Below, one piece after another: positions 4,735 through 34,387 of a DNA stretch of 64,000 nt. Both the position numbers and the translations under genes were made by a program. Numbering within the stretch: position 1 is the first letter of the stretch; every line of letters starts with the position of its first letter. The notes beneath the pieces are model-generated. The model had not been told where the DNA came from and made no database searches. It worked only from the letters and a program-made list of their open reading frames with translations. This DNA comes from Corallococcus sp. EGB (GTDB taxonomy: Bacteria > Myxococcota > Myxococcia > Myxococcales > Myxococcaceae), in NCBI RefSeq assembly GCF_019968905.1, contig NZ_CP079946.1, forward strand, positions 5,729,356 to 5,793,355, read 5' to 3'.

Positions 4735-4887
4735 GCGCCGGTATCCATACCGCAAAGGGTCCGCCGGTGGCGAACGCCCTGGAACAGCGGACCGCCGGCC
4801 CCTCGCGCGCCCGCCTGCCGTGATGCGCCCCGCCGTGCCCTCGGGGGCAAAGAAAAAGGCCTCCTGGTTTCCCAGGAGGCCTTCGAT

Positions 4888-4962
4888 TGGAGCGGGAAAA
4901 GGGATTTGAACCCTCGACCCTCGCCTTGGCAAGGCGATGCTCTACCGCTGAGCTATTCCCGC
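4888..4962 (-). tRNA. tRNA-Gly (anticodon GCC), copy 1
   Basis: Reverse complement is GCGGGAATAGCTCAGCGGTAGAGCATCGCCTTGCCAAGGCGAGGGTCGAGGGTTCAAATCCCTTTTCCCGCTCCA: cloverleaf, GCC anticodon, CCA encoded. Confidence 0.85.
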
Positions 4963-4993: not shown

Positions 4994-5068
4994 TGGAGCG
5001 GGAAAAGGGATTTGAACCCTCGACCCTCGCCTTGGCAAGGCGATGCTCTACCGCTGAGCTATTCCCGC
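4994..5068 (-). tRNA. tRNA-Gly (anticodon GCC), copy 2, identical tandem duplicate with about 106 bp period
   Basis: Identical 75-nt sequence repeated; the flanking cttcgat motif is also duplicated. Confidence 0.85.
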
Positions 5069-11326: not shown

Positions 11327-11956
11327 TCAGCGCGCGTGGACCTTCATCTCCGCGTTCCCCAGGGACGAGGCGACGCGGAGCATCACCTCGTCGGTGCCCT
11401 CGGGGATGACGGGCTGGCCGTTGGTGAATGTCTTCGGGAAGCGCACGCGGTAGCCCACCCAGAAGAGGCTGGCGTACGGGTAGTAGGCGCGCACGTTGAG
11501 GTCCGCTCGGCCCAGGCGGCGGATCTCCAGCGGGGTGACCTCGCCCGCGGGCGTCACCAGCGCGATGCGCCAGATGCTGTTGCGGTGGGCGAAGTCGTCG
11601 TAGCGGTAGTCGTTGACGTGCACCGCGAGGAAGAACTCGTTGAACTTCGCCGCGTCGGCCTGTTCCTCCGCCAGCAGCTGCTCCACCTTCGCGGCGGGCA
11701 GCGTCTGGAAGATGGCGCGACGGTGGATGCGGGCGTCGCGGAAGGCGGGCGTCTGAAACGTGGCCCCCGCGAAGATGCGCGTATCGAAGCCGTCGTAGAT
11801 CTCCTTGCGGTCCGAGTAGCGGTCCAGCACCGAGCGGTACGCGGCCTCCTGCTTCGGATCATCCAGTGTGGGCGCGGGCTCCCCGACGATGGGGGGCGTG
11901 GTGCGGCAGCCGCCCAGCACGCCCAGCAGCACCGCGGCCACCAGCAGCCTTCTCAC
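11327..11956 (-). CDS. Hypothetical lipoprotein
   Basis: Signal peptide with lipobox LLGVLGGC; ordinary composition, high GC3. Confidence 0.6.
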   Translation of the reverse strand: MRRLLVAAVLLGVLGGCRTTPPIVGEPAPTLDDPKQEAAYRSVLDRYSDRKEIYDGFDTRIFAGATFQTPAFRDARIHRRAIFQTLPAAKVEQLLAEEQADAAKFNEFFLAVHVNDYRYDDFAHRNSIWRIALVTPAGEVTPLEIRRLGRADLNVRAYYPYASLFWVGYRVRFPKTFTNGQPVIPEGTDEVMLRVASSLGNAEMKVHAR

Positions 11957-12528
11957 GGGATGAAGTCCTTGCGCGTGAACAGCGTGGTGAGGCGGTGGCC
12001 GGCGGCCTCCACGGCCTCGCGTCCGCCCTCCAGCCGGTCCACCAGCGCGAAGGCGCCCAGCACCGTCAGGCCCTCCAGCTTCGCGCGCTCGATGGCCTTG
12101 AGCGTGGACGCGCCCGTCGTGACGACGTCCTCCACGATGGCCACCGGTGCGCCCGGGCCCAGCGCGGACAGGCCCTCAATCCACTGGCCGGTGCCGTGGC
12201 CCTTGGGCTCCTTGCGCACGATGAACGCGTGCAGGGACTTCTCGCCGCCCCCTTCCAGGAAGCTGGTGAGGCTCACCGCGGACGCGAGCGGATCCGCGCC
12301 CAGCGTCAGGCCACCCGCGGCCACCGCGGAAGGAGCGTCGCGCCGGATGGCCTCCAGGAGCAGCCGGCCGATGAGGTAGTGCCCCTCGGCGAGCAGCGCC
12401 GTGCGCTTGCAGTCGATGTAGAAGTCCGACTCCTTGCCGGAGGAGAGCACCACGCGCCGGCGCTCGAAGGAGCGCTGGGTGAGCACCTCCAGCAGCCGGG
12501 CGCGGTCCCGTTCGAGCGTTTCCGCCAT
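11953..12528 (-). CDS. pyrE: Orotate phosphoribosyltransferase
   Basis: PRPP-binding motif VAIVEDVVTTGAS; type I PRTase fold. Confidence 0.85.
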   Translation of the reverse strand: MAETLERDRARLLEVLTQRSFERRRVVLSSGKESDFYIDCKRTALLAEGHYLIGRLLLEAIRRDAPSAVAAGGLTLGADPLASAVSLTSFLEGGGEKSLHAFIVRKEPKGHGTGQWIEGLSALGPGAPVAIVEDVVTTGASTLKAIERAKLEGLTVLGAFALVDRLEGGREAVEAAGHRLTTLFTRKDFIP

Positions 12529-12531
12529 GGC

Positions 12532-13821
12532 CTACAGACCCTCCAGATACACCACCAGCTGCGCCGAGTACCTCAGCTGCATCAACAGCTCCGCCCTGCG
12601 CGACTCATCCAGCGCGGCGAACACGTCCGCGAGCAGCGAGAGGTCCTGGTTGAGGGCGCCGATGCGCTGCACGACGTCCGCCGCCAGCTCGTCCGCGTCG
12701 ACCTCCTCCTCGACCCCTTCCGGCGCCAGCGTCTCCTCGGTGGCGAGCGCCTTCTCCAGCATGTCGCGCACCGGCGCCGTCAGCCGCCCTTCGGACTCCA
12801 GCGACTCGCGCTTCGCCGCCAGCACGTCGTGCTCCACCGGCGAGGCGTGGATGGCCTCCGCGAGGGACAGGAGGAGCGCGTCCTCGTCGGACAGCTCCTC
12901 GTGCACACGCACCTGGACCTGGTCGCGCTTGAGGAAGCGCAGCGCCGCCACGCGACGGAAGCCGCAGATGAGCTGGTAGCGCTCCTCGCCGCGCGGGCGC
13001 ACGTCCACCGGGAACAGCTGGCCCAGTCGCGCCAGGTCCGTGGCCAGCTCGGACACGTCGCCCTCGTCCCGCAGGCGGAAGGTGGTGTCCTCGTCCAGTC
13101 GCTCCAGCGGCAGCACCATCGCCGTCACCTGTCCCATCACGCGCGGCACGATGGCCTCCGCGTGGGTCTCCCCTTCCGGGGTCGCCGATCCTTCGTTGGA
13201 GCCCTGCCCCGCCACCGTCTCCGCGCCGGAGCCCGCGTCCTCCTGGCTCGCGCGGCTCGCCACGTCCCAGATGCCGGCGCTCAGGAGCGCGGCGTCCGCG
13301 CCCGACACCGGGCCCGAGTGCGGCTCCGCCAGCACGTCCTTCGCCTCGCCGCCTCCGTCGCTGCCCGTGGCGGAGGTGTCCTGGACGCCCTCTCCCGAGG
13401 ACAGCTCCACGTAGCGGCCGGGGCCTGAAGCGGCGTCCGGACCGGGCCCTTCGCCCTGCCCGGCCGCGCCAGAACCTTCTGCTCCACCCTGGAGAGCCTC
13501 GCCCGCACCGTGGACGGCCGCTTCGCCCGGCGTCGCGGGAGGCTCTTCCCCGGAACGGCTCGGGGACGCATCGCCCTCCGTGCGCGCTTCGGGCGCAGCG
13601 GTGGCCTCGGCCCCGCTCGCGGCGCCCTGACTGGCCTCGCCGGGCAGGTCCGTCCGAGCCCCACCGTGAGCGGCGCCTTCCGGCGTGACGTCTCCAACCG
13701 CGCCCTCGCCGTGCTTCGGCGCGGACGCATCCGCCACGCCCTCCTGCGGGGGCGGCGTTGCATTCTCACCCGGTGTGCCCGGCATCCCTTCCTGTCCCTC
13801 GGCCCTATGCTCGGCGTCCAT
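12532..13821 (-). CDS. padC: ParB/Srx-like nuclease-domain adaptor protein (PadC-like) with a long disordered acidic/Gly-rich N-terminus
   Basis: C-terminal ParB N-domain-like [61 protein letters not shown]; lies directly downstream of three bactofilin genes, as in the M. xanthus bacNOP-padC operon. Confidence 0.75.
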
Positions 13822-13882
13822 GGTGGCACCCCCGGTGGTTCCACCCCCGCGCCGCCGGAAACGACGGCGCGGCAGGCGGCAT

Positions 13883-14599
13883 CTAGCGGGACTTCTTCAC
13901 CACGACCTTCTTCTTCGCGCCAGCGCCCATCACGCGGGGAACAGGCGCGCCCGTACTGCTCGCCTGCTCAGTGGACGCCGGACGCGGAGGCTCCGGAGCC
14001 CGGGGCGCGGTCGCCGAGGGCGGCGGCGGGGGCGGCAGCGGCTTGGCGGACGGACGCGCCACGACGGTGGCCGGCGCCGTCGTCGCGGGCGGAGTGCGCG
14101 CGGGCGGCGGGGGCGGCGTCGGGGCGGTGCGCGGCGCGGCGGCCGGCGGCGTCGGAGGACGCGGCGGGGTGGCGCCCGGACGCACCGTGGGGCGCGTCAC
14201 CGCCTGGGGACGTGCCACGGCGGGGCGCTCGGACGGCAGGCGGCCCGGTTCCACGTCGCCCATGTCCACGCGGCCGCGGAAGCTGGCGCCGTCCACGATG
14301 ATGACGCGGGGGGCGCGGATGTCGCCCACCATGCGGCCTTCGCGGGTGAGCTCCACGCTCTCGGTGGCGTTGATGTTGCCCACCACCACGCCGCTGACGA
14401 TGGCGTTCTTCACCGCCACGTTGGCCTTCACCACGCCGGACGGCTCCACGATGAGGGTGCGGCTGAGGGTGAGCTCACCCTCGACGCGCCCGCGGACCGT
14501 GAGGTCCTCGTCACCCGTGAGCCGACCGCTGATGAGGATGGAGGGCCCCACCACGGTGTTGTCGACGGCGTTGCCTGCAAGCTCCTTCGCGGTCGCCAC
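13883..14599 (-). CDS. bacP: Bactofilin with a Pro-rich C-terminal extension and KKKVVVKK tail (BacP-like)
   Basis: Bactofilin DUF583 beta-helical repeats ([10 protein letters not shown]...[11 protein letters not shown]...); long PPPPP tail. Confidence 0.8.
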
Positions 14600-14602
14600 G
14601 GA

Positions 14603-14926
14603 TCAGCGCTCCTTCATGTCCATGTCGACGTTGCCCTTGAAGGAGGCACCGTCGGCGATGAGGATGCGCGGGGCCTTGATGTCGCCCACCACGCGGCAGT
14701 CCGTCTTGAGCTCCACCTTGTCGCTGGCGGCGATGTTGCCCGTCACGCGGCCGGCGATCTCCACGTTCTGCGTCTCGATGTCCGCCTCGACGACGCCCGA
14801 GCCCTCCACGTAGAGGCTCTCCTTGAGGGAGATCTTCCCCTTCACGGTGCCCTGGATGACCAGGTCCTCGTCACCGGAAATCTCCCCGTCGATGACGATG
14901 CTCGAGCCAATGATCGTATTCGCCAT
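14603..14926 (-). CDS. bacO: Bactofilin (BacO-like)
   Basis: Compact 107-aa bactofilin domain: IDGEISGDEDLVIQGTVKGKISLKESLYVEGSGVVEADIE... Confidence 0.8.
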   Translation of the reverse strand: MANTIIGSSIVIDGEISGDEDLVIQGTVKGKISLKESLYVEGSGVVEADIETQNVEIAGRVTGNIAASDKVELKTDCRVVGDIKAPRILIADGASFKGNVDMDMKER

Positions 14927-14989
14927 GAGTGTTGTCCGCCTTCTCGAAGCTGTGCGCCTGGGGGGCCGTGGGTCGGTCCCCGGTGGATG

Positions 14990-15331
14990 CTAGATGTCGT
15001 CCGGCAACTTCACGTCCATCTCGATGGAGCCGTTGAACACGGCGCCGTCCTCGATGATGACCCGCGGGGCCTTGATGTCGCCCGCCACCTTCGCCGAGGC
15101 ATTGATGGCCACGCGCGTGGAGGCGTCGATGTTGCCGCTCGCCTCGCCGTTGATGGTCAGTTCCTCGGCGCGGATGTCCGCCTGCACCTTGCCGGTGCCC
15201 TCGATGGTGAGGTGGTTCTTCAGGGCGATCTGCCCCTCCACGCGCCCCTCGATGACCAGGTCCCCTCCGCCCGTGAGGTTGCCCCTGATGACGATGCCCT
15301 TGCCAATGATGCCCGTTTCACCCTGTGCCAT
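14990..15331 (-). CDS. bacN: Bactofilin (BacN-like)
   Basis: 113-aa bactofilin domain: IRGNLTGGGDLVIEGRVEGQIALKNHLTIEGTGKVQADIRAEELTINGEASGNIDAS. Confidence 0.8.
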   Translation of the reverse strand: MAQGETGIIGKGIVIRGNLTGGGDLVIEGRVEGQIALKNHLTIEGTGKVQADIRAEELTINGEASGNIDASTRVAINASAKVAGDIKAPRVIIEDGAVFNGSIEMDVKLPDDI

Positions 15332-15384
15332 GAGGTGATCCTCGCCAGCGCCTGCTCCGTCGGGAGCGGGGCGACCTGATTATG

Positions 15385-16221
15385 TCAGAGATGCGCGGAG
15401 ATCCAGCCGGAGATGTCCTGGAACACCGTCGCGCGGTCCCGCTCGTTGAGCGGCTCGTGCCGCATGCCGGGGTACTCCTTGAACTTCTTGTCCGCCGTCC
15501 CCGCCGCCTCGAAGAAGGCCCGGGCCGCGGCCGGCAGCGCCACCCCGTCCTCCTGGCCGCACAAGACGAACAGCGGCACTTGAATCTTCGGCGCCAGGGA
15601 GAGCGTCTGCGCCTGGGCGGCCGTGGACTCCACGAACCAGCGGGGCGTGGCGAAGGGCACGTACAACGGGTCCGCCCCGACCGCCTTCTGGATGTCCGGG
15701 TCGGTGCTGAGCATCTCCGGGGCCAGTCCGGAGGGGACCTTCATCCAGGGCACCACGGAGCCCACCATGCGCGCGGCGAGCACCTTCGCGGCCGGCGGGG
15801 TGATGGCCAGCTTGAGGTAGGGCGCGGAGAGGATGGCGCCGGAGAGACCCTCCAGCCGCCCGGCCAGGGCGTGCGCGGCCATCAGGCCGCCGTGGCTGTG
15901 GGCGAGCAGGAAGATCTTCTCCGTGCCCGCGGCCTTGCGCACGCGCTGCCAGAAGGCGTCCAGGTCGTCGAGGAACTCGGTCCACTTGCGGGCATAGGCG
16001 CGCCGTCCGTCCGCGCGGCCGTGGCCGCGGTAGTCGAAGCCGTGCACCGCGAAGCCGTCCTGCACCAGCGCGTCGATGACGGGCCGGTAGCGGCCGATGT
16101 GGTCGCCGTAGCCGTGGACGATGGCGACGTGCGCGCGGGGGGCTGAGTCCGGCAGGTCCAACGTCCAGAACAGCCGGGTGTTGTCCTTGCCGCTGAAGAA
16201 GCCTTCGTCGTGGCGGGCCAT
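15385..16221 (-). CDS. Alpha/beta hydrolase (lysophospholipase/monoacylglycerol-lipase-like)
   Basis: HG box (VHGYGDH), nucleophile elbow AHSHGG, catalytic Asp/His near the C-terminus. Confidence 0.75.
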   Translation of the reverse strand: MARHDEGFFSGKDNTRLFWTLDLPDSAPRAHVAIVHGYGDHIGRYRPVIDALVQDGFAVHGFDYRGHGRADGRRAYARKWTEFLDDLDAFWQRVRKAAGTEKIFLLAHSHGGLMAAHALAGRLEGLSGAILSAPYLKLAITPPAAKVLAARMVGSVVPWMKVPSGLAPEMLSTDPDIQKAVGADPLYVPFATPRWFVESTAAQAQTLSLAPKIQVPLFVLCGQEDGVALPAAARAFFEAAGTADKKFKEYPGMRHEPLNERDRATVFQDISGWISAHL

Positions 16222-16233
16222 GAGGCCTGGACC

Positions 16234-18114
16234 TTAGCGGCCCGGCGCGGTCGAGGGTAGCGCCTTCAACTTGCGCTCCAGGGAGGTGTGCTGGTCCGCG
16301 GGCTCGGCGGCCTCCGGCTCCAGGGTCAGCACCTCGAGTGCGCGTCTCCAGACCCGGGCGGCCTCCGGGGCGCGGCCGGCCTTGAGGTAGGCGTCCCCCA
16401 GGTGCTCCAGGATGGGGGGCTCGTCCGGGGACAGGTCCACCGCGCGCTCCAGGACCTCCACGGCCTTCTTCGCGTCGCCGCGCTGGTAGTGCACCCACCC
16501 CAGCGAGTCCACGTAGGCCGCGCTGTCGGGCCGGAGCGCCAGCGCGCGGCGCACCAGCCGCTCCGCCTCGTCCAGGTCCCGGCCCCGCTGCGCCATCACG
16601 TAACCCATGAAGTTCATCGCCGCGGCGTGGTCCGGCTTCAGCACGAGCACCGCCCGCATGCGCGAGAGCGCCCCGGCCACGTCGCCCTGGCGCTCCAGGA
16701 GGACTCCCAGGGCGAACTGCAGGTCCTGGTTCCTCGGCGCCCCGGCGACGGCGTCCCGCAGCAGCGCGAGCGCGTCCTGCGGCCGGCCCTGGCGCTCCAG
16801 CAGGGAGCCCAGCGCGTCGTACGCCAGCACCCCACCCTCCCCCGTCAACGCCTGGCGAAGCATCGCTTCGGCCTTCGCCGCGTCCCCGCTCCGCTCCAGC
16901 GCCCGGGCATAGGCGACGCGCACCTCCACGTCGTCGGGCGCCTCCGCCATGGCGGCGCCGTAGAGCGCCAGCGCGCGCGGATGGTCTCCGGCCAGCGACA
17001 GGCAGCGGGCCTGGCGGAGGCGTGCGTCCTGGAACACCTCCGAGTCCGAGGGCACGCCCGCGAAGTCCCGGGCGGCGACGGAGAACTGGCGCGTGCGCTC
17101 CGCGACGAGGCCCGCGTAGTACGCCAGCCGGGGCTCGTCCGGCGCGTCCTTGCGCGCGGCGTCCAGCACCTGCTTCGCGGCGTCGGGCGCGCCGGAGGCC
17201 AGGTAGCTGAAGGCCACCCGCACGGCCAGCTCCGGCGACGCGGAGAGCGACAGCAGCCGGTCGAAGTACGCCCGCGCCCGCGTCACCGACCCGCCCTTCA
17301 GCGCGGCGCGACCCGCGGACAGCAGCACCTCGCGGCTGTCCGGATCCGCCTCCAGCGCGCGGGCCAGCGCGTCCTCCGCGTCCTTGGGGCGGCCGGAGTC
17401 CTCGTAGAGCCGGGCCAGCGTGGACCACACCTCCACGTCGCCCGGGTCGCGCTCGGTGGCCTTCACCAGCAGGCGCTCGGCGCGGGCCGCGTCGCCGCGC
17501 TCGGCGAGGACCAGCCCCAGCCGCCGGTAGCCGGACGCCTCCCCCGGCACCGCGTGGGCCAGCGCCTCCACGACCTTCACCGCCTCGTTGGGGTCCTTCG
17601 CGTCCAGGTACAGCTGGGACAGGACGAGGTACGCCTCCGGCTCGCGGGGGCGCAGGGCCACCGCGCGGCGCAGGTGCTGCTTCGCGCGCGCCGTGCGGCC
17701 GGACTCCAGGAGCACGCGTCCCAGGAGCACGTGGGCGGCGTAGTGCGTGGGGGCCCGCTCCACGGCCCGGCGCAGCTCGCGCTCGGCGCGCTCCAGGTCG
17801 CCCAGGCGCGCGTACTCCTCGCCCAGCTGGGTGAGGAGGGTCGGGTTGCCGTCGTCGGTGGCGAGCGCCAGCCGCAGCTCGTCCACCGCGCCCCGGTGGT
17901 TGCCCTCCTGGTGCATCAGCCGCGCCTGGAGGTAGTGCGCGTAGCTGGCGGACGACGCGGACGGCTCGTCGTCGCGGTCGCTGGAGTCCATGGCCTCGCG
18001 CATCGCCTCACGGTCGACGCGCGGGGCCTTCCTCGCGGGCGCGGCCCCCGCGCCTCCGGCGGCCAGCGCCAGGCACAACACGGCGGCACGGCTGAGGAGC
18101 GGGAGCGGACGCAC
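16234..18114 (-). CDS. Secreted tetratricopeptide-repeat protein
   Basis: Signal peptide; more than 12 TPR-like repeats across 626 aa. Confidence 0.75.
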   Translation of the reverse strand: MRPLPLLSRAAVLCLALAAGGAGAAPARKAPRVDREAMREAMDSSDRDDEPSASSASYAHYLQARLMHQEGNHRGAVDELRLALATDDGNPTLLTQLGEEYARLGDLERAERELRRAVERAPTHYAAHVLLGRVLLESGRTARAKQHLRRAVALRPREPEAYLVLSQLYLDAKDPNEAVKVVEALAHAVPGEASGYRRLGLVLAERGDAARAERLLVKATERDPGDVEVWSTLARLYEDSGRPKDAEDALARALEADPDSREVLLSAGRAALKGGSVTRARAYFDRLLSLSASPELAVRVAFSYLASGAPDAAKQVLDAARKDAPDEPRLAYYAGLVAERTRQFSVAARDFAGVPSDSEVFQDARLRQARCLSLAGDHPRALALYGAAMAEAPDDVEVRVAYARALERSGDAAKAEAMLRQALTGEGGVLAYDALGSLLERQGRPQDALALLRDAVAGAPRNQDLQFALGVLLERQGDVAGALSRMRAVLVLKPDHAAAMNFMGYVMAQRGRDLDEAERLVRRALALRPDSAAYVDSLGWVHYQRGDAKKAVEVLERAVDLSPDEPPILEHLGDAYLKAGRAPEAARVWRRALEVLTLEPEAAEPADQHTSLERKLKALPSTAPGR

Positions 18115-18120
18115 GGGAGG

Positions 18121-20634
18121 CTAGTGGACCTCCGGAGGGGGCGCGCCCAGCTTCTCCAGCAGCTTCTCCACCGGATCGCTGTCCTGGCTGACGTCCGCCA
18201 TGGCGGCCCGATACTCGATGGACGTCACCTTCTCCACGTCCGGCATCAGGCGGTTGATGACCGTGCGCGCCGCGTCCGCGTTGCACTCGGGCAGCACCAC
18301 CGCGAAGACGCCCAGCCCCAGGTGGGCGATGGAGTCCGGGTGGCGCACGCGCTTGCGCATCACCTCCGCCATGTTGGGCGGCATGGCGTCCAGCTCGCGG
18401 TCCGGACGGAGCACCGCCAGCGTGAGGGCGCGGTGGTAGCGCCGGCTGCGGGCCACCTCCTGCTCCAGGCGCAGGAGCAGGCCGCGGCGGTCGAGCAGGC
18501 CCGTCACCGGGTCGCTGCCGGTGCGCCGCTGGAGCGAGTTCGTCTTGTCCTGCTGGTCCTTCTCCCCCTGGCGCAGCTTGAGCGCGCGCTCGGTGCGGTT
18601 GAGCAGCTCCACCGCGTTGAAGGGCTTGGCCATGTAGTCCACCGCGCCCAGGTTGAGCGCGCGGACCTTGTCGGCCACGCCCTGGTGGGCGGACAGGAGG
18701 ATGACGGGGATGTGCGCCGTGTCCGACGAGGACTTGAGCGCCATGGCCGCGTCCAGGCCGTCCAGCTTGGGCAGGAACACGTCCATCACCACCAGGTCCG
18801 GCCGGGACGCGCGCGCCTTCGCCAGGCCCTCCGCGCCGTCGCGCGCCACCTCCACGCGGTACTTCGAGCGCAGCACCTCCGACAGCACCGCGGCGATCTC
18901 CGGCTCGTCCTCCACCACCAGCACGCGCGGCTGCTCGGGGGCGGCGCCGGGAGCGGGCTGCGGCCGGGGGTTGCGCGCGGCCTCCTGCGCCAGCGGCAGC
19001 GTGAAGACGAAGGTGCAGCCGCCATCGGTCGGGCTCTCCGCCCAGATTTCACCGCCGTGCAGCTCCACGAACTCCTTGCAGATGGCCAGCCCCAGCCCCG
19101 TGCCCTTGGGCCCGTGGCGGTAGCGGTCGAAGACGAGGTGCAGCTCGTCCGGGGGGATGCCCACGCCGTTGTCGCTCACCATCACCCGCACCGCGTCGCC
19201 GTCCGGCCGCGACAGCCGCTGCGTGCGCACCACCACCACGCCCGGGTCCCTGGCGTGCTGGATGGCGTTGCTGATGAGGTTCTGCAGCACCTCGTGCAGC
19301 TTCACCTCGTCGCCAATGAGCATCAGGCTGTCGGGGCACTCGGAGCGCAGCGACACGGCCTTCTCCGCCGCGAGGATTTCGAGCTCCGCCACGGCGTCGC
19401 GGCACAGCTGCGCCACGTCCAGCACGCGCGGCTCGATGGACAGGCGCGCCGCCTCGCCCTTGCCCTTCTCCAGCAGGGACTCGACCAGGGTGAGGATCTT
19501 CCGGCCCTGGCGGATCATCGCCTCCGCGGACTGCTTCTGCTGCGCCTCCAGCGGCCCCTCCAGCAGGAGCCGGCCGTGCCCCAGGAGCACCTGGAGCGGC
19601 GCGCGCAGGTCGTGGCTGCACACCGCGATGATCTCGTCCTTGAGGCGGTTGAGCTCCTTCAGGCGGCGGTTCGCGTCGTTGAGCTCGCGGTAGCGCTCCA
19701 CGTACGCCAGCTCCAGGTCCTCGCGCTTCTTCTTCACCGCCGTGTGCAGGCGCGCGTTGCGGATGGAGTTGGCGAGCACGCCCGCCACGGCTTCCGCGAA
19801 CTCCTGCTCGTCGCGCCCGATGGACGCCTCGCCCTTGGACACGCGCAGGAAGAGCGCGCCCAACAGGTCGTCCTGGCAGATGAGCGGCTGCACCAGGATG
19901 GACTTCACGCCTTCCGGCAACAGCGAGGTGCGCACCTCCGCCATCAGCGGGTCGCGCTGCGCCTCTTCAATCAGCACGGGCTGCCGCGTCTCCAGCGCGC
20001 GGCGCAGCTCCGGATAGCGCGCCACCTCGATGTCCAGCTGGACGAGGCTGGGGTCCTCCTGCGTCGCGACGACCGTGGCCGTGCGCGCGTGGCTGCCCTC
20101 CACCAGCACCACGGAGCAGCGGTCCGTGCCCGTCACCTGGCCGACCTTCTCCACCGCGATGCGGAGGATCTCCTCCAGCTCCAGGGAGCTGGTGGCCGCC
20201 TGGGTGATTTCGAGCAGCATCCCCATGCGCATGCGGATGCGCTCCTCGCGCTCCTTCAGGCGCCAGGCGCGCAGGGCGGACTCCAGCCGGGGCACCAGTT
20301 CGTCCGCGCCGCGCACGAAGTCGTCCACCGCCAGCCGCTTGAAGGCCTCCGCCGAGCGCGCGCGGCCCTGATCCACCAGCACCGGCAGGCGCTGGAGCTT
20401 GTCCGTCTTGCGCACCGTCTCCAGCAGCTCCGCGGCCCGCTTGGCCGTCACGGCCAGGAGCACCACCTCCGGCTGGAGCTGATCCACCATCTCCGCCAAC
20501 CCGGTCTCCCGCTCCGTGGAGGCGCACTGGTAGCCACTCGCCGTGAGCCGCTCCACCAACGCGTCACCCGCGGCCTTCGCCGCGAGCACCAGCACCCGCC
20601 CCCGCTGCTCCGACGACAACATCTCGATCCTCAC
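18121..20634 (-). CDS. Hybrid sensor histidine kinase/response regulator: pseudo-receiver, GAF, HisKA, HATPase, REC, and a C-terminal degenerate GGDEF domain
   Basis: H-box AVCSHDLRAPLQ, G-box SDNGVGIP...GTGLGLAI, receiver VLVVEDEP...DLVVMDVFLPKLDGL, GGDEF-like GLLDRRGLLLRLEQEV...LTLAVLRPD with an HLGLGVF degenerate active-site motif. Confidence 0.8.
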   Translation of the reverse strand: MRIEMLSSEQRGRVLVLAAKAAGDALVERLTASGYQCASTERETGLAEMVDQLQPEVVLLAVTAKRAAELLETVRKTDKLQRLPVLVDQGRARSAEAFKRLAVDDFVRGADELVPRLESALRAWRLKEREERIRMRMGMLLEITQAATSSLELEEILRIAVEKVGQVTGTDRCSVVLVEGSHARTATVVATQEDPSLVQLDIEVARYPELRRALETRQPVLIEEAQRDPLMAEVRTSLLPEGVKSILVQPLICQDDLLGALFLRVSKGEASIGRDEQEFAEAVAGVLANSIRNARLHTAVKKKREDLELAYVERYRELNDANRRLKELNRLKDEIIAVCSHDLRAPLQVLLGHGRLLLEGPLEAQQKQSAEAMIRQGRKILTLVESLLEKGKGEAARLSIEPRVLDVAQLCRDAVAELEILAAEKAVSLRSECPDSLMLIGDEVKLHEVLQNLISNAIQHARDPGVVVVRTQRLSRPDGDAVRVMVSDNGVGIPPDELHLVFDRYRHGPKGTGLGLAICKEFVELHGGEIWAESPTDGGCTFVFTLPLAQEAARNPRPQPAPGAAPEQPRVLVVEDEPEIAAVLSEVLRSKYRVEVARDGAEGLAKARASRPDLVVMDVFLPKLDGLDAAMALKSSSDTAHIPVILLSAHQGVADKVRALNLGAVDYMAKPFNAVELLNRTERALKLRQGEKDQQDKTNSLQRRTGSDPVTGLLDRRGLLLRLEQEVARSRRYHRALTLAVLRPDRELDAMPPNMAEVMRKRVRHPDSIAHLGLGVFAVVLPECNADAARTVINRLMPDVEKVTSIEYRAAMADVSQDSDPVEKLLEKLGAPPPEVH

Positions 20635-21079
20635 GGCGCGCCTCCGCCCCGCCCAGACAGGGAACGACGCCGCGGAAACCCGTTGGGTGCGAAAGGGGTC
20701 ATGGTCGATTCCGGATCATGCCGTCTAACCCGTCCGCGGGCCAGCGGATGAACGGGACTCTCCTCAAGCGAGAGGGGTGGGAAAAGGCGTGCGACGTATA
20801 CCCCGGCCCGGCTTCCTTCCTCCGGAATCCCGCGCGCACATGACGGTCCGATGACCGGAAACCGCCCGCCCCAGCCCTTGAAGGGATGGAACGCCGCGAA
20901 AACAGCGGCGCTGTTACTTTCTTCCCCCACCACTCCCACCGGTCGGCCGGTGGCTGGGCGGGCGGGCAGGAGTCGCGGGGAGGTTTCCGGGGCCTTCGCG
21001 ATCAGGATTCGGTCCAGGGACAGGCCCGGGGGCCGTGGCCCCGCCCGCTTCCCGAGGGAGCGCGGTAGAGTGTGGAACC

Positions 21080-22642
21080 ATGCACTCCGCTCCTTCGCGC
21101 CCGTTCGCGCCGCGGGCCTTCCTGGCCACACTGAACTTCTGCGCCTCCATGCTCGCCGCCTGTGGGGGCGAGAAGCCGGCGCCCATCCCGGACCCGCCGA
21201 CGGTGACGCTCACCGTGCCGCAGCCCAACACGGCGGCCCCCTCGCTGACGGTGCGGATCATCGTGTCCGGGTGTGACGCCGTGTCGCGGGTGGACATCTA
21301 CGACCGGGACACGTTCCTCAAGTCCGTTGCGTACACCAGCGGGTCCATGGACTTCGAGCTGGAGAAGAACGAAATCAAGTACGACCGCGGGCTCGCCGTG
21401 GGGCTGTCGCTCAACGCGCGGGCGACGTGCGCGGACGGCCGGGCGAACGTGTCCCAGCCGCAGGCGGCCACGTTCCTGCCGGTGGCGAAGGTCATCAAGG
21501 ATCCGGACCCCAACGGCCAGGTGGTGACGGACTTCTTCATCGCCGAGGGCAGCGGCACGAACGTCTCCTTCCTCGGCTGCGGCAACCCCACCACGGGCTC
21601 CGGCACGCTCTACCGCGTGGACTCGGCGGGTGTGGTGCGCAACTCGGTGTCGATGGGCATCCCGTGCACCACGGACACGGTCATCACCGCCGTCAACAAG
21701 GTCAGCAAGAAGCGGTGGGTCTGGACGCCCGGCATCGGCGCGATCGCCGTGGACGACAACTTCGTCATCACCGGCCGGACGGCGACCACCTACGCGCCGG
21801 AGCGCTTCTCCGTCATGGACGACGGGGACGCGCTCGTCATCAATGGCATCAACGTCTCGCGGCTCAATCACACCTCGACGAACGGCGCGTTCCAGTGGAC
21901 GCACCAGTCGTCGTGGCGGCCCGTCGGGCCGGCCCAGCAGAAGGGGGCGCAGGTGGTGTTCCCCATGGCCCGTGTGCCCAACGAGGCCTCGCCCTCGCTT
22001 CTGGAGCTCGTGGTCGTGACGCTGGATGCCAACACCACCGGGGACAAGGTGCCCCTGGTGCAGGAGAAGGCCATCACCCAGTATCAGGGCGACACCAGCT
22101 CGCCGCCCCCCATCGCGCTCAGCGCGGACGGCCGGACCATCTTCCTGGCGCTCGCGTTCGCGAACAACCAGTCGCGGGTGCAGGCCTGCTCCGCGGAGGT
22201 GGCGGGCTGCGAGGGCAGCGCGCTCAAGTGGATGAGCACCACGTTCCCGGTGCCGACGAACTTCCTGCTGCCCTTCTACGCGGGCACGCGGCTGGCGGTC
22301 ATCGGCACGCAGCGCGTGTGGTTCCTGGATACGGCGAACGGGCTCGTCACCAACAAGGGCGGCACGTCGGTGGACGCCTCCGGACAGCTTCGCATCCTCC
22401 AGGCGCAGCTGGGCCAGCCCACGAGCCCGGAGTTCTACCTGCTCGCCGGTTCGGGCCAGGGCGGCGCCCTGCCGGTGGAGATCGTCGCGGTGGACACCGC
22501 GGAGAACGGCGAGCTGTTCCGCTACGAGGTCTCCAGCAGCCTGTCCTGCTCCGTGGATGACAGCGGCCGGCTGTGGATGCGTGTGGGCAACAACCTGGTC
22601 CAGGCGCTCACGCTGCCGGAGTACCGCGCCGTCAAGAAGTGA
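21080..22642 (+). CDS. Hypothetical secreted lipoprotein, possibly beta-propeller or Ig-like. Start at MHSAPSRPF
   Basis: Signal peptide with lipobox MLAACGG; Thr/Ser/Gly-rich ordinary composition; about 445 bp divergent intergenic region upstream. Confidence 0.6.
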   Translation: MHSAPSRPFAPRAFLATLNFCASMLAACGGEKPAPIPDPPTVTLTVPQPNTAAPSLTVRIIVSGCDAVSRVDIYDRDTFLKSVAYTSGSMDFELEKNEIKYDRGLAVGLSLNARATCADGRANVSQPQAATFLPVAKVIKDPDPNGQVVTDFFIAEGSGTNVSFLGCGNPTTGSGTLYRVDSAGVVRNSVSMGIPCTTDTVITAVNKVSKKRWVWTPGIGAIAVDDNFVITGRTATTYAPERFSVMDDGDALVINGINVSRLNHTSTNGAFQWTHQSSWRPVGPAQQKGAQVVFPMARVPNEASPSLLELVVVTLDANTTGDKVPLVQEKAITQYQGDTSSPPPIALSADGRTIFLALAFANNQSRVQACSAEVAGCEGSALKWMSTTFPVPTNFLLPFYAGTRLAVIGTQRVWFLDTANGLVTNKGGTSVDASGQLRILQAQLGQPTSPEFYLLAGSGQGGALPVEIVAVDTAENGELFRYEVSSSLSCSVDDSGRLWMRVGNNLVQALTLPEYRAVKK

Positions 22643-26929: not shown

Positions 26930-28666
26930 CTAGCAGTCCACCGGGCCTTTCAGGCTCGTAACGGTGGCTTCGATTTCTTCACACCCCCCCAGGGTTTTCG
27001 CCCCGTGGGCCGCCAGCTTGATGCCCAGCACGTCCCCCACCACCACGTCCGACATGGAGCGCACCACCACGCCGTCCCGCTGGCGGAACGTCACCGCGTA
27101 CCCGCGCGACATCACCTTCAGGGGGCTCAGGGCGTCCAGGCGGCCGCCCAGCCGGCCGAAGTGCGTCTGCGCGGACGACAGCATGCCCCGCTGGAGTTCC
27201 AGGAGCCGTGCCTGCGCCTGGGCCACCTTCGCCCGCTCGGCCGCCACGCGCGCCGTGGGCGTGGCCCGCTCCAGCCCCAGCCGCGCGTCCGCCAGCGCGC
27301 CCCGCCTCCGGGACACGCCCGCGCGCGCCGCCTCCGACAGGCGCATGGCCAGCTTCAACAGGTGCGCCCGCTGCTCCGACAGCCGCGTCTGGGGCCGCGC
27401 CCGCTGCAGCCGCTCCTGGAGCGCGCGCAGCGTCTCCCGGTGCTCGCGCGTCCGGGGGCGCATCACGCGCATCATCGCCTCCACCTGTTCGGACAGGTGC
27501 AGGCGCTGGTGGTTCACCTCACGGCGGGGGTCGGGCAGCCGTGAGCGCAGCTGGCCCTGGCGCTCGCGCAGCTCCAGCACCCGGCGCTCCATGGCCCGGC
27601 GCAGGCGGCCGGACTGCGTGGCCAGCGTCAGCTCCAGGTCCGCCAGCACCGGCGCCAGCCGCTCCGCCGCCGCGCTGGGCGTGGGCGCGCGCAGGTCCGC
27701 GACGAAGTCCGAGATGGTGAAGTCGATTTCGTGGCCGATGGCGGACACCACCGGCACGGGCGAGGCGAAGATGGCGCGCGCCACCCGCTCCTCGTTGAAC
27801 GTCCAGAGGTCCTCCACGGAGCCTCCGCCGCGCGTCACGACGATGACGTCCACGTCCGTACGCGCGAGCCGCTCGATGGCCCGCGCCACGTCCTCCGCGG
27901 AGCCCTCCCCCTGCACGCGCGCGTCCGCCAGGAGCACGCCCAGCCGGGGGTTGCGCGAGTGCAGCACACGCAGGAAGTCCTGGAGCGCCGCGCCGGTGCG
28001 GCTCGTCACGACGCCGATGCGCCGGGGCAGGAACGGCACGGGCCGGGGCGGCCGCACGCGCCGGTCGCCGATGAGCCCCTCCGCCGCCAGCCGCTGCTTG
28101 AGCTGCTCGAACGCGAGCGCCAGCGCGCCCTCGCCCACCGGCTCCAGCCGGGACACGATGAGGCTGTAGCGGCCCTGCGGCTCGTACAGGTCCACGCTGC
28201 CCTCGGCCAGCACCTCCATGCCGTCGCGCAGCGCGAAGCGGATCCGCGACGCCATGGACGCCCACACCTTCGCGTCGATGGAGGCGTCCGAGTCCTTGAG
28301 CGTGAAGTACCAGTGGCCGCGCGCGTTGGCGCCGCGGAAGCTGGACACCTCGCCGCGCACCAGCACGCGCGGGAAGCGCGACTCCACCGTCTGCTTGATC
28401 TGCCGGGTGAGCTCGCCTACCGACAGCACCGTGCGCTCCGCGCGAGGCGGCGGAGTGACGGTGGCCGGAGGCGCCGGCGTGCTGGCGGCCGGGGGCTCCG
28501 CGGCGATCTCCGCCACCGGCGCGGACGGCGGCGACCTGGGCGGCTTGCTCGCGGCGGCGGCCTTCGGCGGGGCCGGACGCAGGGGAGGCAGGAGCGACGT
28601 GCCGAACAGATCGCCCTGCCCCGGCTCGTCGGCCGGGGGTGATTCGCCCCCCTTGCGCTTCTTCAT
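26930..28666 (-). CDS. xseA: Exodeoxyribonuclease VII large subunit. Start at MKKRKGG; Pro-rich N-terminal linker, then OB-fold
   Basis: OB-fold GEVSSFRGANARGHWYFTLKD; catalytic-region motifs GVVTSRTGAALQDF...VVTRGGGSVEDLW; the track's N-terminal 177 aa are an artefact. Confidence 0.85.
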   Translation of the reverse strand: MKKRKGGESPPADEPGQGDLFGTSLLPPLRPAPPKAAAASKPPRSPPSAPVAEIAAEPPAASTPAPPATVTPPPRAERTVLSVGELTRQIKQTVESRFPRVLVRGEVSSFRGANARGHWYFTLKDSDASIDAKVWASMASRIRFALRDGMEVLAEGSVDLYEPQGRYSLIVSRLEPVGEGALALAFEQLKQRLAAEGLIGDRRVRPPRPVPFLPRRIGVVTSRTGAALQDFLRVLHSRNPRLGVLLADARVQGEGSAEDVARAIERLARTDVDVIVVTRGGGSVEDLWTFNEERVARAIFASPVPVVSAIGHEIDFTISDFVADLRAPTPSAAAERLAPVLADLELTLATQSGRLRRAMERRVLELRERQGQLRSRLPDPRREVNHQRLHLSEQVEAMMRVMRPRTREHRETLRALQERLQRARPQTRLSEQRAHLLKLAMRLSEAARAGVSRRRGALADARLGLERATPTARVAAERAKVAQAQARLLELQRGMLSSAQTHFGRLGGRLDALSPLKVMSRGYAVTFRQRDGVVVRSMSDVVVGDVLGIKLAAHGAKTLGGCEEIEATVTSLKGPVDC

Positions 28667-30414
28667 CGCGACAGCTTCTCGATCCAGCCCTGGGCCTTGC
28701 CGTGCAGCTCGTCGTCCGGCGGCGTCATCGCGACGACGTCGCGGAACTTGGGCAGCGCGTCCTCGGGGCTGGAGTCCTTGATGGAGTAGGCCTGCATGTA
28801 CAGGTCCTTCGCCTTGCCCTTGAGGTCGTTGACGATGTTGGCGGCGCCCGCGTGGGCGGGGTCCGCCTGGAGCGCGCGGCGGGCGAACTCCATGGCGCGC
28901 GACCACTGGCCGGCGGCCTTCGCGCCCGCGGCGCTCTTGTAATAGATGGTCGCCGCGCGGGTGCCCGCGTTGCGCGCCATCTTGCTGCCGCGCCCGTCCG
29001 TGATGTCCTTGTCCAGCGCGAGCAGCCGGGTGAGGCCCTTGGCGTCCAGGTCCTCCAGCTTCTTGTAGAGGTTGCCGAACTCCGTCACCTGCCCCATCAG
29101 CTGCTTGCACTGCGCCGTCTTGGCCGAGCACGCGTTGAGCATGGCCGCCGCGCCGGTGAGGTCGCCGTCGCGGAAGCGGTCCACGGCGGGCTCCCACGGC
29201 TTGGGCGCCGCGGCCACGCGCACGGGGTCCGGACGGGTCATGTCGGCGATGACGCGCGCGGCATCGTCATTGACCAGCTTGCCGTCGCGGTGCTCTGGGA
29301 AGGTCGCCAGCACGTCGTCGGTGATGGCCTTGGCCTTCTGCACGTTCTCCAGCTGGCGGGTGTCCAGCAGCCCCTTGGCCTCCTTCGTGCGCTTGTCGGC
29401 GGCTTCCGCCAGGTTCCTGCGCGCCGCCTTGAGCTGCTCGTAGAGCTGGGTGTCGCTGCTCACCTTCTCGATGGACGCCTTCGCGTTGGCGAGCTCGCCC
29501 TTGGCCAGCGCCGCCTGGGCCGTGGCCAGGTGGCCCTGGTTGGGGATCTCCCGCTCCGCTGCCTTCAGGTAGTCCGCCACGCCGGGGTAGTCCGGCGCCT
29601 GCGCGTTGAGCTCCTCCAGCTTCGCCTTGGCTTGCTGCCACTGGCCCTCGCGCACCAGGTTCTTGGCTTCCTGGAAGAGGCCGCCCAGCTGCTCGCGGTA
29701 CTTGCGCTGCTCGGCCTCGATGCGGCCCTGCTCCTCCTGCTGGTGACGCATGCGCGAGCGCGCGACGCCCAGACCCGCGAAGAGCAGCACCAGCACGGCG
29801 GCGCCCGCGAGCTTGATCCGCATGCGCTTGCGCTGCATCTCCGGCGTGAGCTCCGCGGCCGCGGCGGCGCGCGACGTCTGCGGGCGCGCGCGGCCCTCCC
29901 GGGCGGGGCGCGCGGGCACGGCCACGGCACCGCGAGCACCCGAGGCGGACGGGCGGGGCCGGGGGCTGGAGGGCGCCTGCACCTTGGCGGTGCTGTTGGC
30001 GGTGTCCTCGTAGCGCAGCTCCGAGTCGCCCAGCGTGATGACGTCGCCGTTGGCGAGCAGCGTCTCCTCGGAGATGGGCTCGCCGTTGACGATGGTGCCG
30101 TTGCCGGACCCCATGTCACTGACCATCCAGCCGGCGGACTCCTTGCGCAGCGTCACGTGCTTGCGGGAGACGGACGTGTCCTGGATGCAGATGGGGTTGT
30201 CGGTGGAGCGGCCCACCGTGTACTCGAGCTCGGAGAGCGCGAACTCCTCGCCCTCCATGGGGCCGGCGACGACGACGAGCTTCGCCGGGCGAACCGCGGC
30301 CGCGGAGGCACCGGTCGACCGGCGGACCGGCGCGCGCTGTCCGGTCCCGGAGGAGGGCGTACCTGACGTAGGCCGTCGGCGGGCGGGGGGAGGTGCGTTC
30401 GACATGGAGGTCAC
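28663..30414 (-). CDS. FHA-domain, single-pass inner-membrane protein with a periplasmic TPR/coiled-coil C-terminal region; part of the Tad-like cluster (resembles Kil-system FHA proteins)
   Basis: FHA motif VGRSTDNPICIQDTSVSRKHVTL...SGNGTIVNGEPI; TM helix LAGAAVLVLLFAGLGVA; stop overlaps the xseA start (ATGA). Confidence 0.75.
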   Translation of the reverse strand: MTSMSNAPPPARRRPTSGTPSSGTGQRAPVRRSTGASAAAVRPAKLVVVAGPMEGEEFALSELEYTVGRSTDNPICIQDTSVSRKHVTLRKESAGWMVSDMGSGNGTIVNGEPISEETLLANGDVITLGDSELRYEDTANSTAKVQAPSSPRPRPSASGARGAVAVPARPAREGRARPQTSRAAAAAELTPEMQRKRMRIKLAGAAVLVLLFAGLGVARSRMRHQQEEQGRIEAEQRKYREQLGGLFQEAKNLVREGQWQQAKAKLEELNAQAPDYPGVADYLKAAEREIPNQGHLATAQAALAKGELANAKASIEKVSSDTQLYEQLKAARRNLAEAADKRTKEAKGLLDTRQLENVQKAKAITDDVLATFPEHRDGKLVNDDAARVIADMTRPDPVRVAAAPKPWEPAVDRFRDGDLTGAAAMLNACSAKTAQCKQLMGQVTEFGNLYKKLEDLDAKGLTRLLALDKDITDGRGSKMARNAGTRAATIYYKSAAGAKAAGQWSRAMEFARRALQADPAHAGAANIVNDLKGKAKDLYMQAYSIKDSSPEDALPKFRDVVAMTPPDDELHGKAQGWIEKLSR

Positions 30415-30441
30415 CGCGTCCTGCTGAGGGGGGCACGCGCC

Positions 30442-33426: not shown

Positions 33427-33499
33427 TTCGGCCTGCTCGAAGGCGAGCTCCCGTCCGACCTGGAGCCCCTGGGTGATGGTGAGCAGGATGGGCAGAGGA

Positions 33500-34387
33500 C
33501 TAGCCCCCGACGTTGCCGAACATGAACTGGAACACGATGGGCCCGAAGAGCACCATGAACACCGTCGGGAAGATGCAGGCGATCAGCGGGAACAGCATCT
33601 TCACCGGGGCCTCGCCGGCCAGCTTCTCCGCGCGCTGCGTGCGGTCGATGCGCATCTGCGTGGACTGGATGCGCAGCACCTTGCCCAGGCTCGTGCCCAT
33701 CTTGTCCGCCTGGATCAGCGCCGTGACGAACGTCGTCAGCGACGGCAGGTCCACGCGCATGATCATGCTCTTCAAGGCCTCTTCGCGCGTCTTGCCCATC
33801 TTGAGCTGCTTGAGCACCAGCTGCAGCTCCTCGCGCAGCGGACCCTGGCGGCCCTTCTCCACCACCTTCGCCAGCGCGCCCGTGAAGTCCATGCCCGCTT
33901 CCACCGACAGCGTCAGCAGGTCCAGGTTGTACGGGAGCGCGCGGCTGATGGCCAGGTGACGGCGCTTCACCTGATCGTTCAACCAGATGAGCGGATAGAA
34001 CAGGCCCAGGAGCATCACCAGCAGCGACCACGCCAGGTTCGCGCCAATGCCGTTGACGACGAACAGGCCGGCGAGCAACGCGAAGAACGCGCTCACCTCC
34101 TGCAACGCCATGATGTCCTCGGGCTTGTACTGCGACGGCTCGCCCGCCTTGATCAGCTTGCGGCGCGTCTTGGACTCGTAGCTCGGCCACATGAAGCGCC
34201 GGTTCATCGCGCCCAGCTTGCGGACGGCGACGGAGCCCGCGCCCTTCATGCCGCCAGCGGACTCGTCCCGCACCTCCGTGAGGAAGCGCTCCAGGACGTT
34301 GGTGTACAGGCCGATGCCCAGGAACGCCACCGCGCCCGCGGTCAGCAGTACCGAGCCGCCCATCAGCAGAGATGTCAGGACTTCCAC
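33500..34387 (-). CDS. Tad/type II secretion system F-family inner-membrane platform protein (TadC-like)
   Basis: T2SSF-domain polytopic membrane protein; pairs with the following TadB-like gene. Confidence 0.8.
   Translation of the reverse strand: MEVLTSLLMGGSVLLTAGAVAFLGIGLYTNVLERFLTEVRDESAGGMKGAGSVAVRKLGAMNRRFMWPSYESKTRRKLIKAGEPSQYKPEDIMALQEVSAFFALLAGLFVVNGIGANLAWSLLVMLLGLFYPLIWLNDQVKRRHLAISRALPYNLDLLTLSVEAGMDFTGALAKVVEKGRQGPLREELQLVLKQLKMGKTREEALKSMIMRVDLPSLTTFVTALIQADKMGTSLGKVLRIQSTQMRIDRTQRAEKLAGEAPVKMLFPLIACIFPTVFMVLFGPIVFQFMFGNVGG

Follow-up and report, generated by a model that had tools for sequence, protein, structure and literature searches.

The four genes located between positions 12532 and 15331 of the DNA analyzed here, a stretch of 64,000 nucleotides (nt) from Corallococcus sp. 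EGB (contig NZ_CP079946.1, positions 5,729,356–5,793,355; this whole stretch is referred to below as the window), encode three tandem bactofilins and a ParB-like adaptor. Considering gene content, protein architecture and comparison with related genomes, it is very probable that this locus is the Corallococcus orthologue of the bacN-bacO-bacP-padC locus of Myxococcus xanthus and that, by analogy, it most likely works as it does there. The system is already known, being the orthologue of one characterized in a sister genus (Lin et al., 2017; PMC5703909), and a preliminary description of the window was right in calling it described rather than novel. The M. xanthus padC gene is MXAN_4634 (Lin et al., 2017; PMC5703909), and a crystal structure of its product is available (PDB 6RYK). 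The value of the Corallococcus locus lies in taxonomic placement and in better annotation, with little beyond annotation.

All four genes are transcribed from the minus strand. The first three are bacN (14990–15331, 113 amino acids (aa)), bacO (14603–14926, 107 aa, starting at ATG 14926) and bacP (13883–14599, 238 aa, with a GTG start), which correspond to the three tandem bactofilin genes that had been listed beforehand, with the same protein lengths. Their products match the Pfam family Bactofilin (PF04519, or DUF583) with E values of 4.3e-27 for BacN, 9.3e-27 for BacO and 3.5e-23 for BacP; the corresponding scores are 94.7, 93.6 and 82.1 bits, against a Pfam cut-off of 27.9. The match spans residues 8–103 of BacN and residues 15–111 of BacP, this latter core being encoded at 14267–14557. 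NCBIfam contains no model matching any of the three proteins. Identity among the three paralogues is about 50% (50% between BacO and BacN), and BacP gives weak sequence matches (E 3e-4) to the solved bactofilins 2N3D and 6RIA.

The remainder of BacP is a tail of 123 aa (residues 116–238, encoded at 13886–14254) with 30% proline, which corroborates the Pro-rich tail that had been attributed to the third bactofilin. At the C-terminal end of the tail, the motif KKKVVVKK is found (residues 229–236, minus strand, 13892–13915; translation checked). It is present in its strict form in 48 of 63 orthologous loci. The remaining loci carry near variants of it, such as KKKVL[LV]KK and NKKVLVKK, with the only exception of locus L009, which has a different tail. 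This conserved motif has been named as potentially involved in PadC binding (PMC12448750).

The correspondence with the BacNOP-PadC system of M. xanthus, already proposed in the preliminary description, was substantiated by comparison with strain DK1622. With respect to the genes occupying the same positions in that strain, BacN is 94.7% identical over its full length, BacO 98.1% (over DK1622 residues 20–126) and BacP 73.1%; the first 118 residues of BacP are 95% identical. The last 193 residues of PadC are 78% identical to those of DK1622. Eight genes are found in the same order and orientation in the DK1622 locus (L001), coding for a TPR protein, a Hydrolase_4 protein, the three bactofilins, PadC, PyrE and a lipoprotein. 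The block is followed in DK1622 by LOG-family and rhomboid genes on the opposite strand, counterparts of which are also present in the window. For the other products of the block, identities to DK1622 are 85.3% (PyrE), 68.8% (hydrolase), 66.6% (TPR protein) and 60% (lipoprotein).

A scan including one genome per species yielded 80 loci encoding PadC relatives, which belong to Corallococcus, Myxococcus, Pyxidicoccus, Citreicoccus, Hyalangium, Archangium, Cystobacter, Vitiosangium and uncultured Myxococcota. Wherever the sequence encoding the PadC C-terminal domain is preceded by 2.6 kb or more, which is the case in 61 loci, the hydrolase gene, bacN, bacO, bacP and padC follow one another on one strand (61/61), and every locus lacking bactofilin genes is ended by a contig end. 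The pyrE gene comes after padC in every related locus that is long enough, the two matches being at most about 45 nt apart. The hydrolase gene occupies the same place in DK1622 and in all related loci that reach far enough upstream. The order of the whole block (11327–18114 in the window) is kept even in relatives whose PadC C-terminal domain is only about 60% identical. Clustering of bacNOP and padC in the Myxococcales had already been noted on a smaller set of genomes (Lin et al., 2017; PMC5703909).

The fourth gene, padC (12532–13821, minus strand), encodes the 429-aa ParB-like adaptor. ParB_N (PF02195) is the sole Pfam family in the protein even at E<=10 (residues 252–325; 26.8 bits, with a cut-off of 26.3), in agreement with the earlier statement that PadC has no other recognizable domain. 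The ParB/Srx domain (12847–13068) had then been termed N-terminal; the domain exists, and the adjective is valid only as part of the family name, the domain being located in the C-terminal half of PadC. Residues 214–429 match the crystallized M. xanthus PadC construct (6RYK) with an E value of 4.2e-96; the next PDB match is Thermus thermophilus Spo0J, with E 1e-4. An AlphaFold2 model of PadC was obtained from 13 sequences, with a mean predicted local distance difference test (pLDDT) score of 50.6, a predicted template modeling (pTM) score of 0.24 and pLDDT values of 65–86 over most of the folded part, and served just to delimit the disordered and folded parts of the protein and to run a check with Foldseek. 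In the model, pLDDT is below 50 at residues 1–226, and residues 231–428 form a mixed alpha/beta fold followed by helices. Foldseek retrieved 6RYK as the top match (E 5.9e-16) and, below it, Noc, M. xanthus ParB, Caulobacter ParB, KorB and sulfiredoxin, that is, the ParB/Srx fold family. The identity of the three proteins as bactofilins, when compared with DK1622, and the ParB-like fold of the fourth, according to both the 6RYK match and Foldseek, were in this way confirmed.

PadC residues 1–235 contain 19% Ala, 19% Gly, 11.5% Glu, 8.5% Pro and 8.5% Ser, with 11.5% hydrophobic residues and a net charge of −30. Of the disordered Gly/Glu-rich region of about 230 aa that had been described here, the disorder was reproduced, and the composition is better termed Gly/Ala/Glu-rich. 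The folded C-terminal region (residues 227–429, 12535–13143) includes the ParB/Srx domain, the nucleotide-binding boxes, an acidic stretch and two terminal helices. When 13 PadC orthologues were aligned (alignment A1), more than 100 columns were invariant and the C-terminal 200 residues, approximately, were almost invariant. The acidic stretch (residues 368–378, 12688–12720), which includes EEEVDADE, is largely invariant in these 13 sequences.

In M. xanthus, PadC binds cytidine triphosphate (CTP) with no noticeable CTPase activity (PMC8367383, 10.1101/2025.10.10.680097 and PMC10653881), the bound form being a closed dimer (PMC8367383). The residues F308 and F348 of that protein replace a Gln and a Glu of ParB that have been implicated in hydrolysis (PMC8367383). 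With Box I and Box II defined as in PMC10653881, the window PadC contains both Box I (13009–13050) and Box II, with the sequence GFRRVAA (12943–12963); the coordinates were checked by translation. The equivalents of M. xanthus F308 and F348 in the window protein are F248 and F288, respectively. Alignment A1 shows no variation in Box I, Box II or the F288 column, and F248 is conserved to at least 90%. In the Box III region, the window PadC reads EAIHA, as M. xanthus PadC does; T. thermophilus Spo0J aligns there with ENLQR. The window PadC therefore retains both CTP-binding boxes, as well as the two Phe substitutions found in the non-hydrolyzing M. xanthus PadC, and CTP binding is predicted for it.

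PadC reaches 34.0 bits with the TIGR00180 model (parB_part), for which 58.45 bits are required; with the NCBIfam models for RepB, Noc and PRTRC-ParB, it remains far under the respective cut-offs. Neither a helix-turn-helix (HTH) nor a C-terminal ParB dimerization domain was detected in PadC with Pfam at E<=10; in M. xanthus PadC, just a low-scoring possible HTH has been reported (PMC5703909). PadC is thus no canonical ParB, since it falls below the TIGR00180 cut-off and lacks a detectable HTH or dimerization domain. Public records call it "ParB/RepB/Spo0J family partition protein", a label that is not specific enough; the entry should read PadC, bactofilin-ParA adaptor.

On the basis of the M. 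xanthus experiments, the following mechanism can be proposed for Corallococcus. BacN, BacO and BacP would co-polymerize in the absence of nucleotide and form subpolar scaffolds; in M. xanthus, the three proteins co-assemble into subpolar patches (Lin et al., 2017; PMC5703909). The long Pro-rich BacP tail ending in KKKVVVKK would then recruit the folded C-terminal ParB/Srx region of PadC. For the M. xanthus proteins, a dissociation constant (KD) of 340 nM was measured between the C-terminal tail of BacP and N-terminally truncated PadC, and the disordered PadC N-terminus is dispensable for co-localization with the bactofilins (PMC5703909). The EEE(V/I)DADE stretch of PadC and the KKKVVVKK motif of BacP, both highly conserved, are candidate contacts for the BacP-PadC interface. 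PadC would bind CTP with no hydrolysis and would capture ParA, mostly as monomers, along the scaffold; truncated M. xanthus PadC binds ParA-ATP with a KD of 0.9 uM (PMC5703909). ParB-parS complexes would be held at the pole-distal ends of the scaffold. The contact holding ParB there was left unresolved by Lin et al. (2017; PMC5703909). As a result, scaffold and PadC would render ParABS-driven chromosome segregation more robust. In M. xanthus, losing the scaffold and SMC together is synthetically lethal, and the role of the scaffold in segregation is redundant with that of SMC (Anand et al., 2020; 10.1101/2020.06.17.156356). A second role of BacP, the positioning of SofG, is possible by analogy with M. 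xanthus (PMC5703909).

Several points weigh against extending the M. xanthus model to Corallococcus. The module is known here from its genes, and polymerization, the BacP-PadC and PadC-ParA interactions, CTP binding, the capture of ParA and ParB and the phenotype would all be carried over from experiments performed in M. xanthus. The assignment of the PadC fold would depend mainly on sequence identity to 6RYK, the confidence of the structural model being moderate. The disordered region of PadC differs from that of M. xanthus in length and sequence (48% overall identity), and the BacP tail has diverged outside its terminal motif; therefore, affinities or regulation could differ. Finally, parA, parB and sofG are not found within the 64-kb window, the rest of the genome not having been searched.

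Three other interpretations were considered. The hydrolase, bacNOP, padC, pyrE and lipoprotein genes might constitute a larger functional unit, in which PyrE could provide, for instance, pyrimidine or CTP supply. The distance between padC and pyrE is short both in the window and in the related loci, pyrE overlaps the lipoprotein gene, the block keeps its order in distant relatives, and the predicted CTP-binding protein PadC stands beside PyrE, an enzyme acting in pyrimidine synthesis. However, every genome sampled comes from a single lineage (Myxococcaceae, Archangiaceae and related metagenome-assembled genomes), and the order may simply have been inherited. Moreover, the upstream TPR gene is equally syntenic with no obvious connection to the rest, and the cited papers report no functional link. 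Such a unit is, in our view, very unlikely.

Alternatively, the scaffold could have been conserved mainly for another bactofilin task, such as maintaining cell shape or placing the SofG GTPase and the type IV pilus ATPases at the poles, the ParABS function being secondary or absent. In M. xanthus, BacP also positions SofG, the BacNOP scaffolds are multi-purpose hubs, and loss of BacNOP or of PadC results in only moderate segregation defects (PMC5703909). Nevertheless, PadC has no known role beyond ParA recruitment. The location of padC directly downstream of bacP in 61/61 genomes, the near-invariant PadC C-terminal domain and the conserved BacP motif argue for continued selection on the link between BacP, PadC and ParA. 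The two tasks are not mutually exclusive, and we consider it highly improbable that the scaffold is maintained mainly for the other one. Lastly, that the fourth gene codes for a genuine partitioning ParB, a CTP-hydrolyzing DNA clamp loading on parS independently of bactofilins, can be dismissed as extremely improbable: the ParB_N domain, the weak parB_part, RepB and Noc matches, the ParB names of its homologues in public records and the binding of M. xanthus PadC-YFP to the nucleoid when produced in E. coli (PMC5703909) are outweighed by the scores under the TIGR00180 cut-off and far under those of all equivalog models, the HTH and C-terminal ParB domains not detected even at E<=10, the presence of Phe instead of both the Glu of Box II and the Gln of P-motif-1 (linked to the absent CTPase activity of M. 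xanthus PadC in PMC8367383), an acidic conserved N-terminus where ParB contacts ParA via N-terminal arginines (PMC10653881), and the invariable linkage of padC to three bactofilin genes with no adjacent parA.

Returning to the interpretation of the locus as a BacNOP-PadC module, its comparison over 81 loci separates invariant from freely varying parts. The invariant parts are the KKKVVVKK end of BacP, the PadC C-terminal domain with EEE(V/I)DADE, a 12-residue sequence at the N-terminus of PadC, and a hairpin in the spacer between bacP and padC. Free variation is seen in the linker of PadC and in the body of the BacP tail. This map could guide the mapping of the BacP-PadC and ParB contacts. The variable linker comprises residues 13–226 of PadC (13144–13785, minus strand), belongs to the part of the protein predicted to be disordered, is acidic and is unalignable across genera. 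Among loci with a located N-terminal motif, between 68 and 360 aa precede the PadC C-terminal domain.

The conserved 12-mer corresponds to padC codons 1–12 (13786–13821, minus strand) and was identified by pattern match and in alignment A1. The pattern M[DN]AE[HNS][RK]x[DE][GE]x[DE][GA] is found in 50 sequences (related loci plus window), which represent 28 distinct DNA versions. It has a bearing on the start of padC. Among database proteins, PadC is best matched by a Corallococcus sp. EGB entry of 417 aa, which aligns with 97% of the query at 100% identity and thereby places the window in this genus; identities to PadC of other Corallococcus species are 62–89%, and the pairwise identity to the DK1622 protein is 48.3%. 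The 417-aa entry appears to start at an ATG located 12 codons downstream of ATG 13821. As the first ATG is kept in 28/28 distinct DNA versions and Met13 in just 11/28, ATG 13821 is probably the better start, and that of the database entry should probably be moved 12 codons upstream. By the same logic, the DK1622 padC annotation would start 11 codons too early.

Regarding its role, the 12-mer could be a short linear docking motif, either for holding ParB-parS at the scaffold ends or as a signal for scaffold assembly. The synonymous sites of the 12-mer are conserved as well, and its codons end in A or T, which is unusual in this genome. For this reason, the peptide motif is inseparable from a constraint acting on the RNA, for example an open translation-initiation region, which could explain the pattern.

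The second conserved non-domain element is a GC-rich stem-loop within the 61-nt spacer between bacP and padC (13841–13879, minus strand), proposed from RNA folding with comparative support. Its core, at 13847–13873, is GCCGCGCCGUCG-UUUC-CGGCGGCGCGG; it contains one G-U pair, and this pair forms in the sense-strand RNA only. A scan for perfect stems missed it because of this G-U pair. The minimum free energy of the window stem-loop is −36.9 kcal/mol, with a single-sequence z-score of just −1.82, which is not significant for such a GC-rich sequence. The support for the hairpin as a conserved structure would then be entirely comparative. Of 45 distinct spacer versions, taken from seven genera, 44 fold into a strong hairpin within the first half of the spacer (the exception is L032). 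The stem sequences differ among versions, and most of the hairpins lie directly 3′ of the bacP stop codon. RNAalifold, applied to an alignment of 17 sequences, predicted a stem of 10 pairs, 3 of them with compensatory changes; in the same alignment, 94.7% of cells are paired in the stem vs 31–56% in slid controls. The possibility that the hairpin is a dispersed repeat was discarded, as it occurs once in the window. No U-tract accompanies the window hairpin. It may be conjectured that it acts as an intercistronic attenuator or as a protective, mRNA-stabilizing 3′ hairpin, so that much BacNOP would be made for little PadC. The cited BacNOP-PadC papers describe neither the 12-mer nor the stem-loop; conservation is what was observed for both, and that they are functional additions to the known system appears to us unlikely.

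With respect to gene layout, the spacers measure 63 nt between bacN and bacO, 3 nt between bacO and bacP, and 3 nt between padC and pyrE. The sequence AAGGAG is located within the 3′ end of bacO, 9 nt ahead of the bacP GTG, and this placement suggests translational coupling of bacO and bacP. The bacO start at ATG 14926 is the first start codon downstream of an in-frame stop, and the protein begins with MANT. In DK1622, the BacO gene call (L001, 4863–5243) corresponds to 126 aa and overlaps bacN; its 19-aa N-terminal extension has no counterpart in the window and is probably due to a mis-called start. Within the window, the region 13100–14300 has a GC content of 75–79% and is of low complexity. 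Many draft myxobacterial assemblies (the contigs of L002, L004, L005, L006, L008, L010, L015, L017 and L026) end 130–235 nt upstream of padC, inside the sequence of the bacP tail, and for that reason the automated annotation of bacP and padC is often truncated.

The genes flanking the module are also on the minus strand. Downstream of padC lies pyrE (11953–12528, 191 aa), which codes for orotate phosphoribosyltransferase (TIGR00336, 113 bits against a cut-off of 106.8) and is probably co-transcribed with padC. It is followed by a gene for a putative lipoprotein (11327–11956, 209 aa), the N-terminus of which, MRRLLVAAVLLGVLGGC, is readable as a lipobox; this protein has no match in Pfam or NCBIfam. 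As had been anticipated, pyrE comes immediately after padC and overlaps the lipoprotein gene, the overlap being of 4 nt (GTGA). On the other side, a gene for an alpha/beta-hydrolase (15385–16221; Pfam Hydrolase_4, E 3.1e-69) is located 53 nt upstream of bacN. Between 10500 and 18500, a sigma-70 promoter scan gave no result, and a scan for intrinsic terminators gave two candidate sites, neither of them on the strand of the genes and not above the level of shuffled sequences. Rfam at gathering thresholds found nothing at the bacNOP-padC locus. Long ORFs on the plus strand over the locus (e.g., 13685–15379, 564 aa) were treated as antisense artifacts of DNA with about 75% GC. When the region 11327–20634 was filtered by frame according to GC at third and second codon positions (GC3/GC2), all ORFs passing were on the minus strand; bacP itself failed.

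Elsewhere in the window, two tandem tRNA-Gly(GCC) genes (4888–4962 and 4994–5068, minus strand) with identical scores were the only Rfam matches. They are followed at 4856–4883 by a perfect 12-bp hairpin, AAGGCCTCCTGG-TTTC-CCAGGAGGCCTT, which looks like their terminator. A 535-aa ORF with coding-like GC3 and no Pfam match is located at 21035–22642 on the plus strand. Two large FHA-domain proteins (583 and 994 aa), with genes adjoining one of the T2SSF family, are encoded at 28663–34387 on the minus strand.

When compared with known systems, the window module most closely resembles BacNOP-PadC of M. xanthus DK1622. Both share gene order and orientation, the eight-gene neighborhood, the BacP core and a Pro-rich BacP tail of about 120 aa ending in KKKVVVKK, as well as Box I, Box II and Phe at M. 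xanthus positions 308 and 348. They differ in that the window PadC has 429 aa, in contrast to the 489 aa annotated in DK1622, with a shorter and unalignable linker, in the BacP tail outside its terminal motif, and in the spacer hairpin, the stem of which has another sequence in the window, where the CTTTTC run of M. xanthus is missing.

PadC also shares the ParB/Srx fold, Box I and Box II with canonical ParB/Spo0J CTPases (T. thermophilus Spo0J, 1VZ0; M. xanthus ParB, 7BNK). In contrast to them, it has no detectable HTH or dimerization domain, its residues at the catalysis-linked positions are Phe, and it scores below the TIGR00180 cut-off; a long disordered region precedes its ParB/Srx domain, which is C-terminal, and its gene is linked to bactofilins and not to parA. 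The BacM protein, the fourth M. xanthus bactofilin, the gene of which lies beside parAB, belongs to the same Pfam family (PF04519) as the window bactofilins. BacM, however, acts in cell shape and not in the positioning of ParABS, and is encoded at another locus (PMC5703909), whereas the window genes are positional orthologues of bacN, bacO and bacP. At the functional level, an analogy has been drawn (PMC5703909) with PopZ of Caulobacter and DivIVA of actinomycetes, since all of them would provide, near the poles, a scaffold that sequesters ParA monomers and anchors ParB-parS. PopZ and DivIVA belong to unrelated families, and, unlike them, BacNOP-PadC is subpolar rather than located at the pole tip and needs a dedicated ParB-like adaptor.

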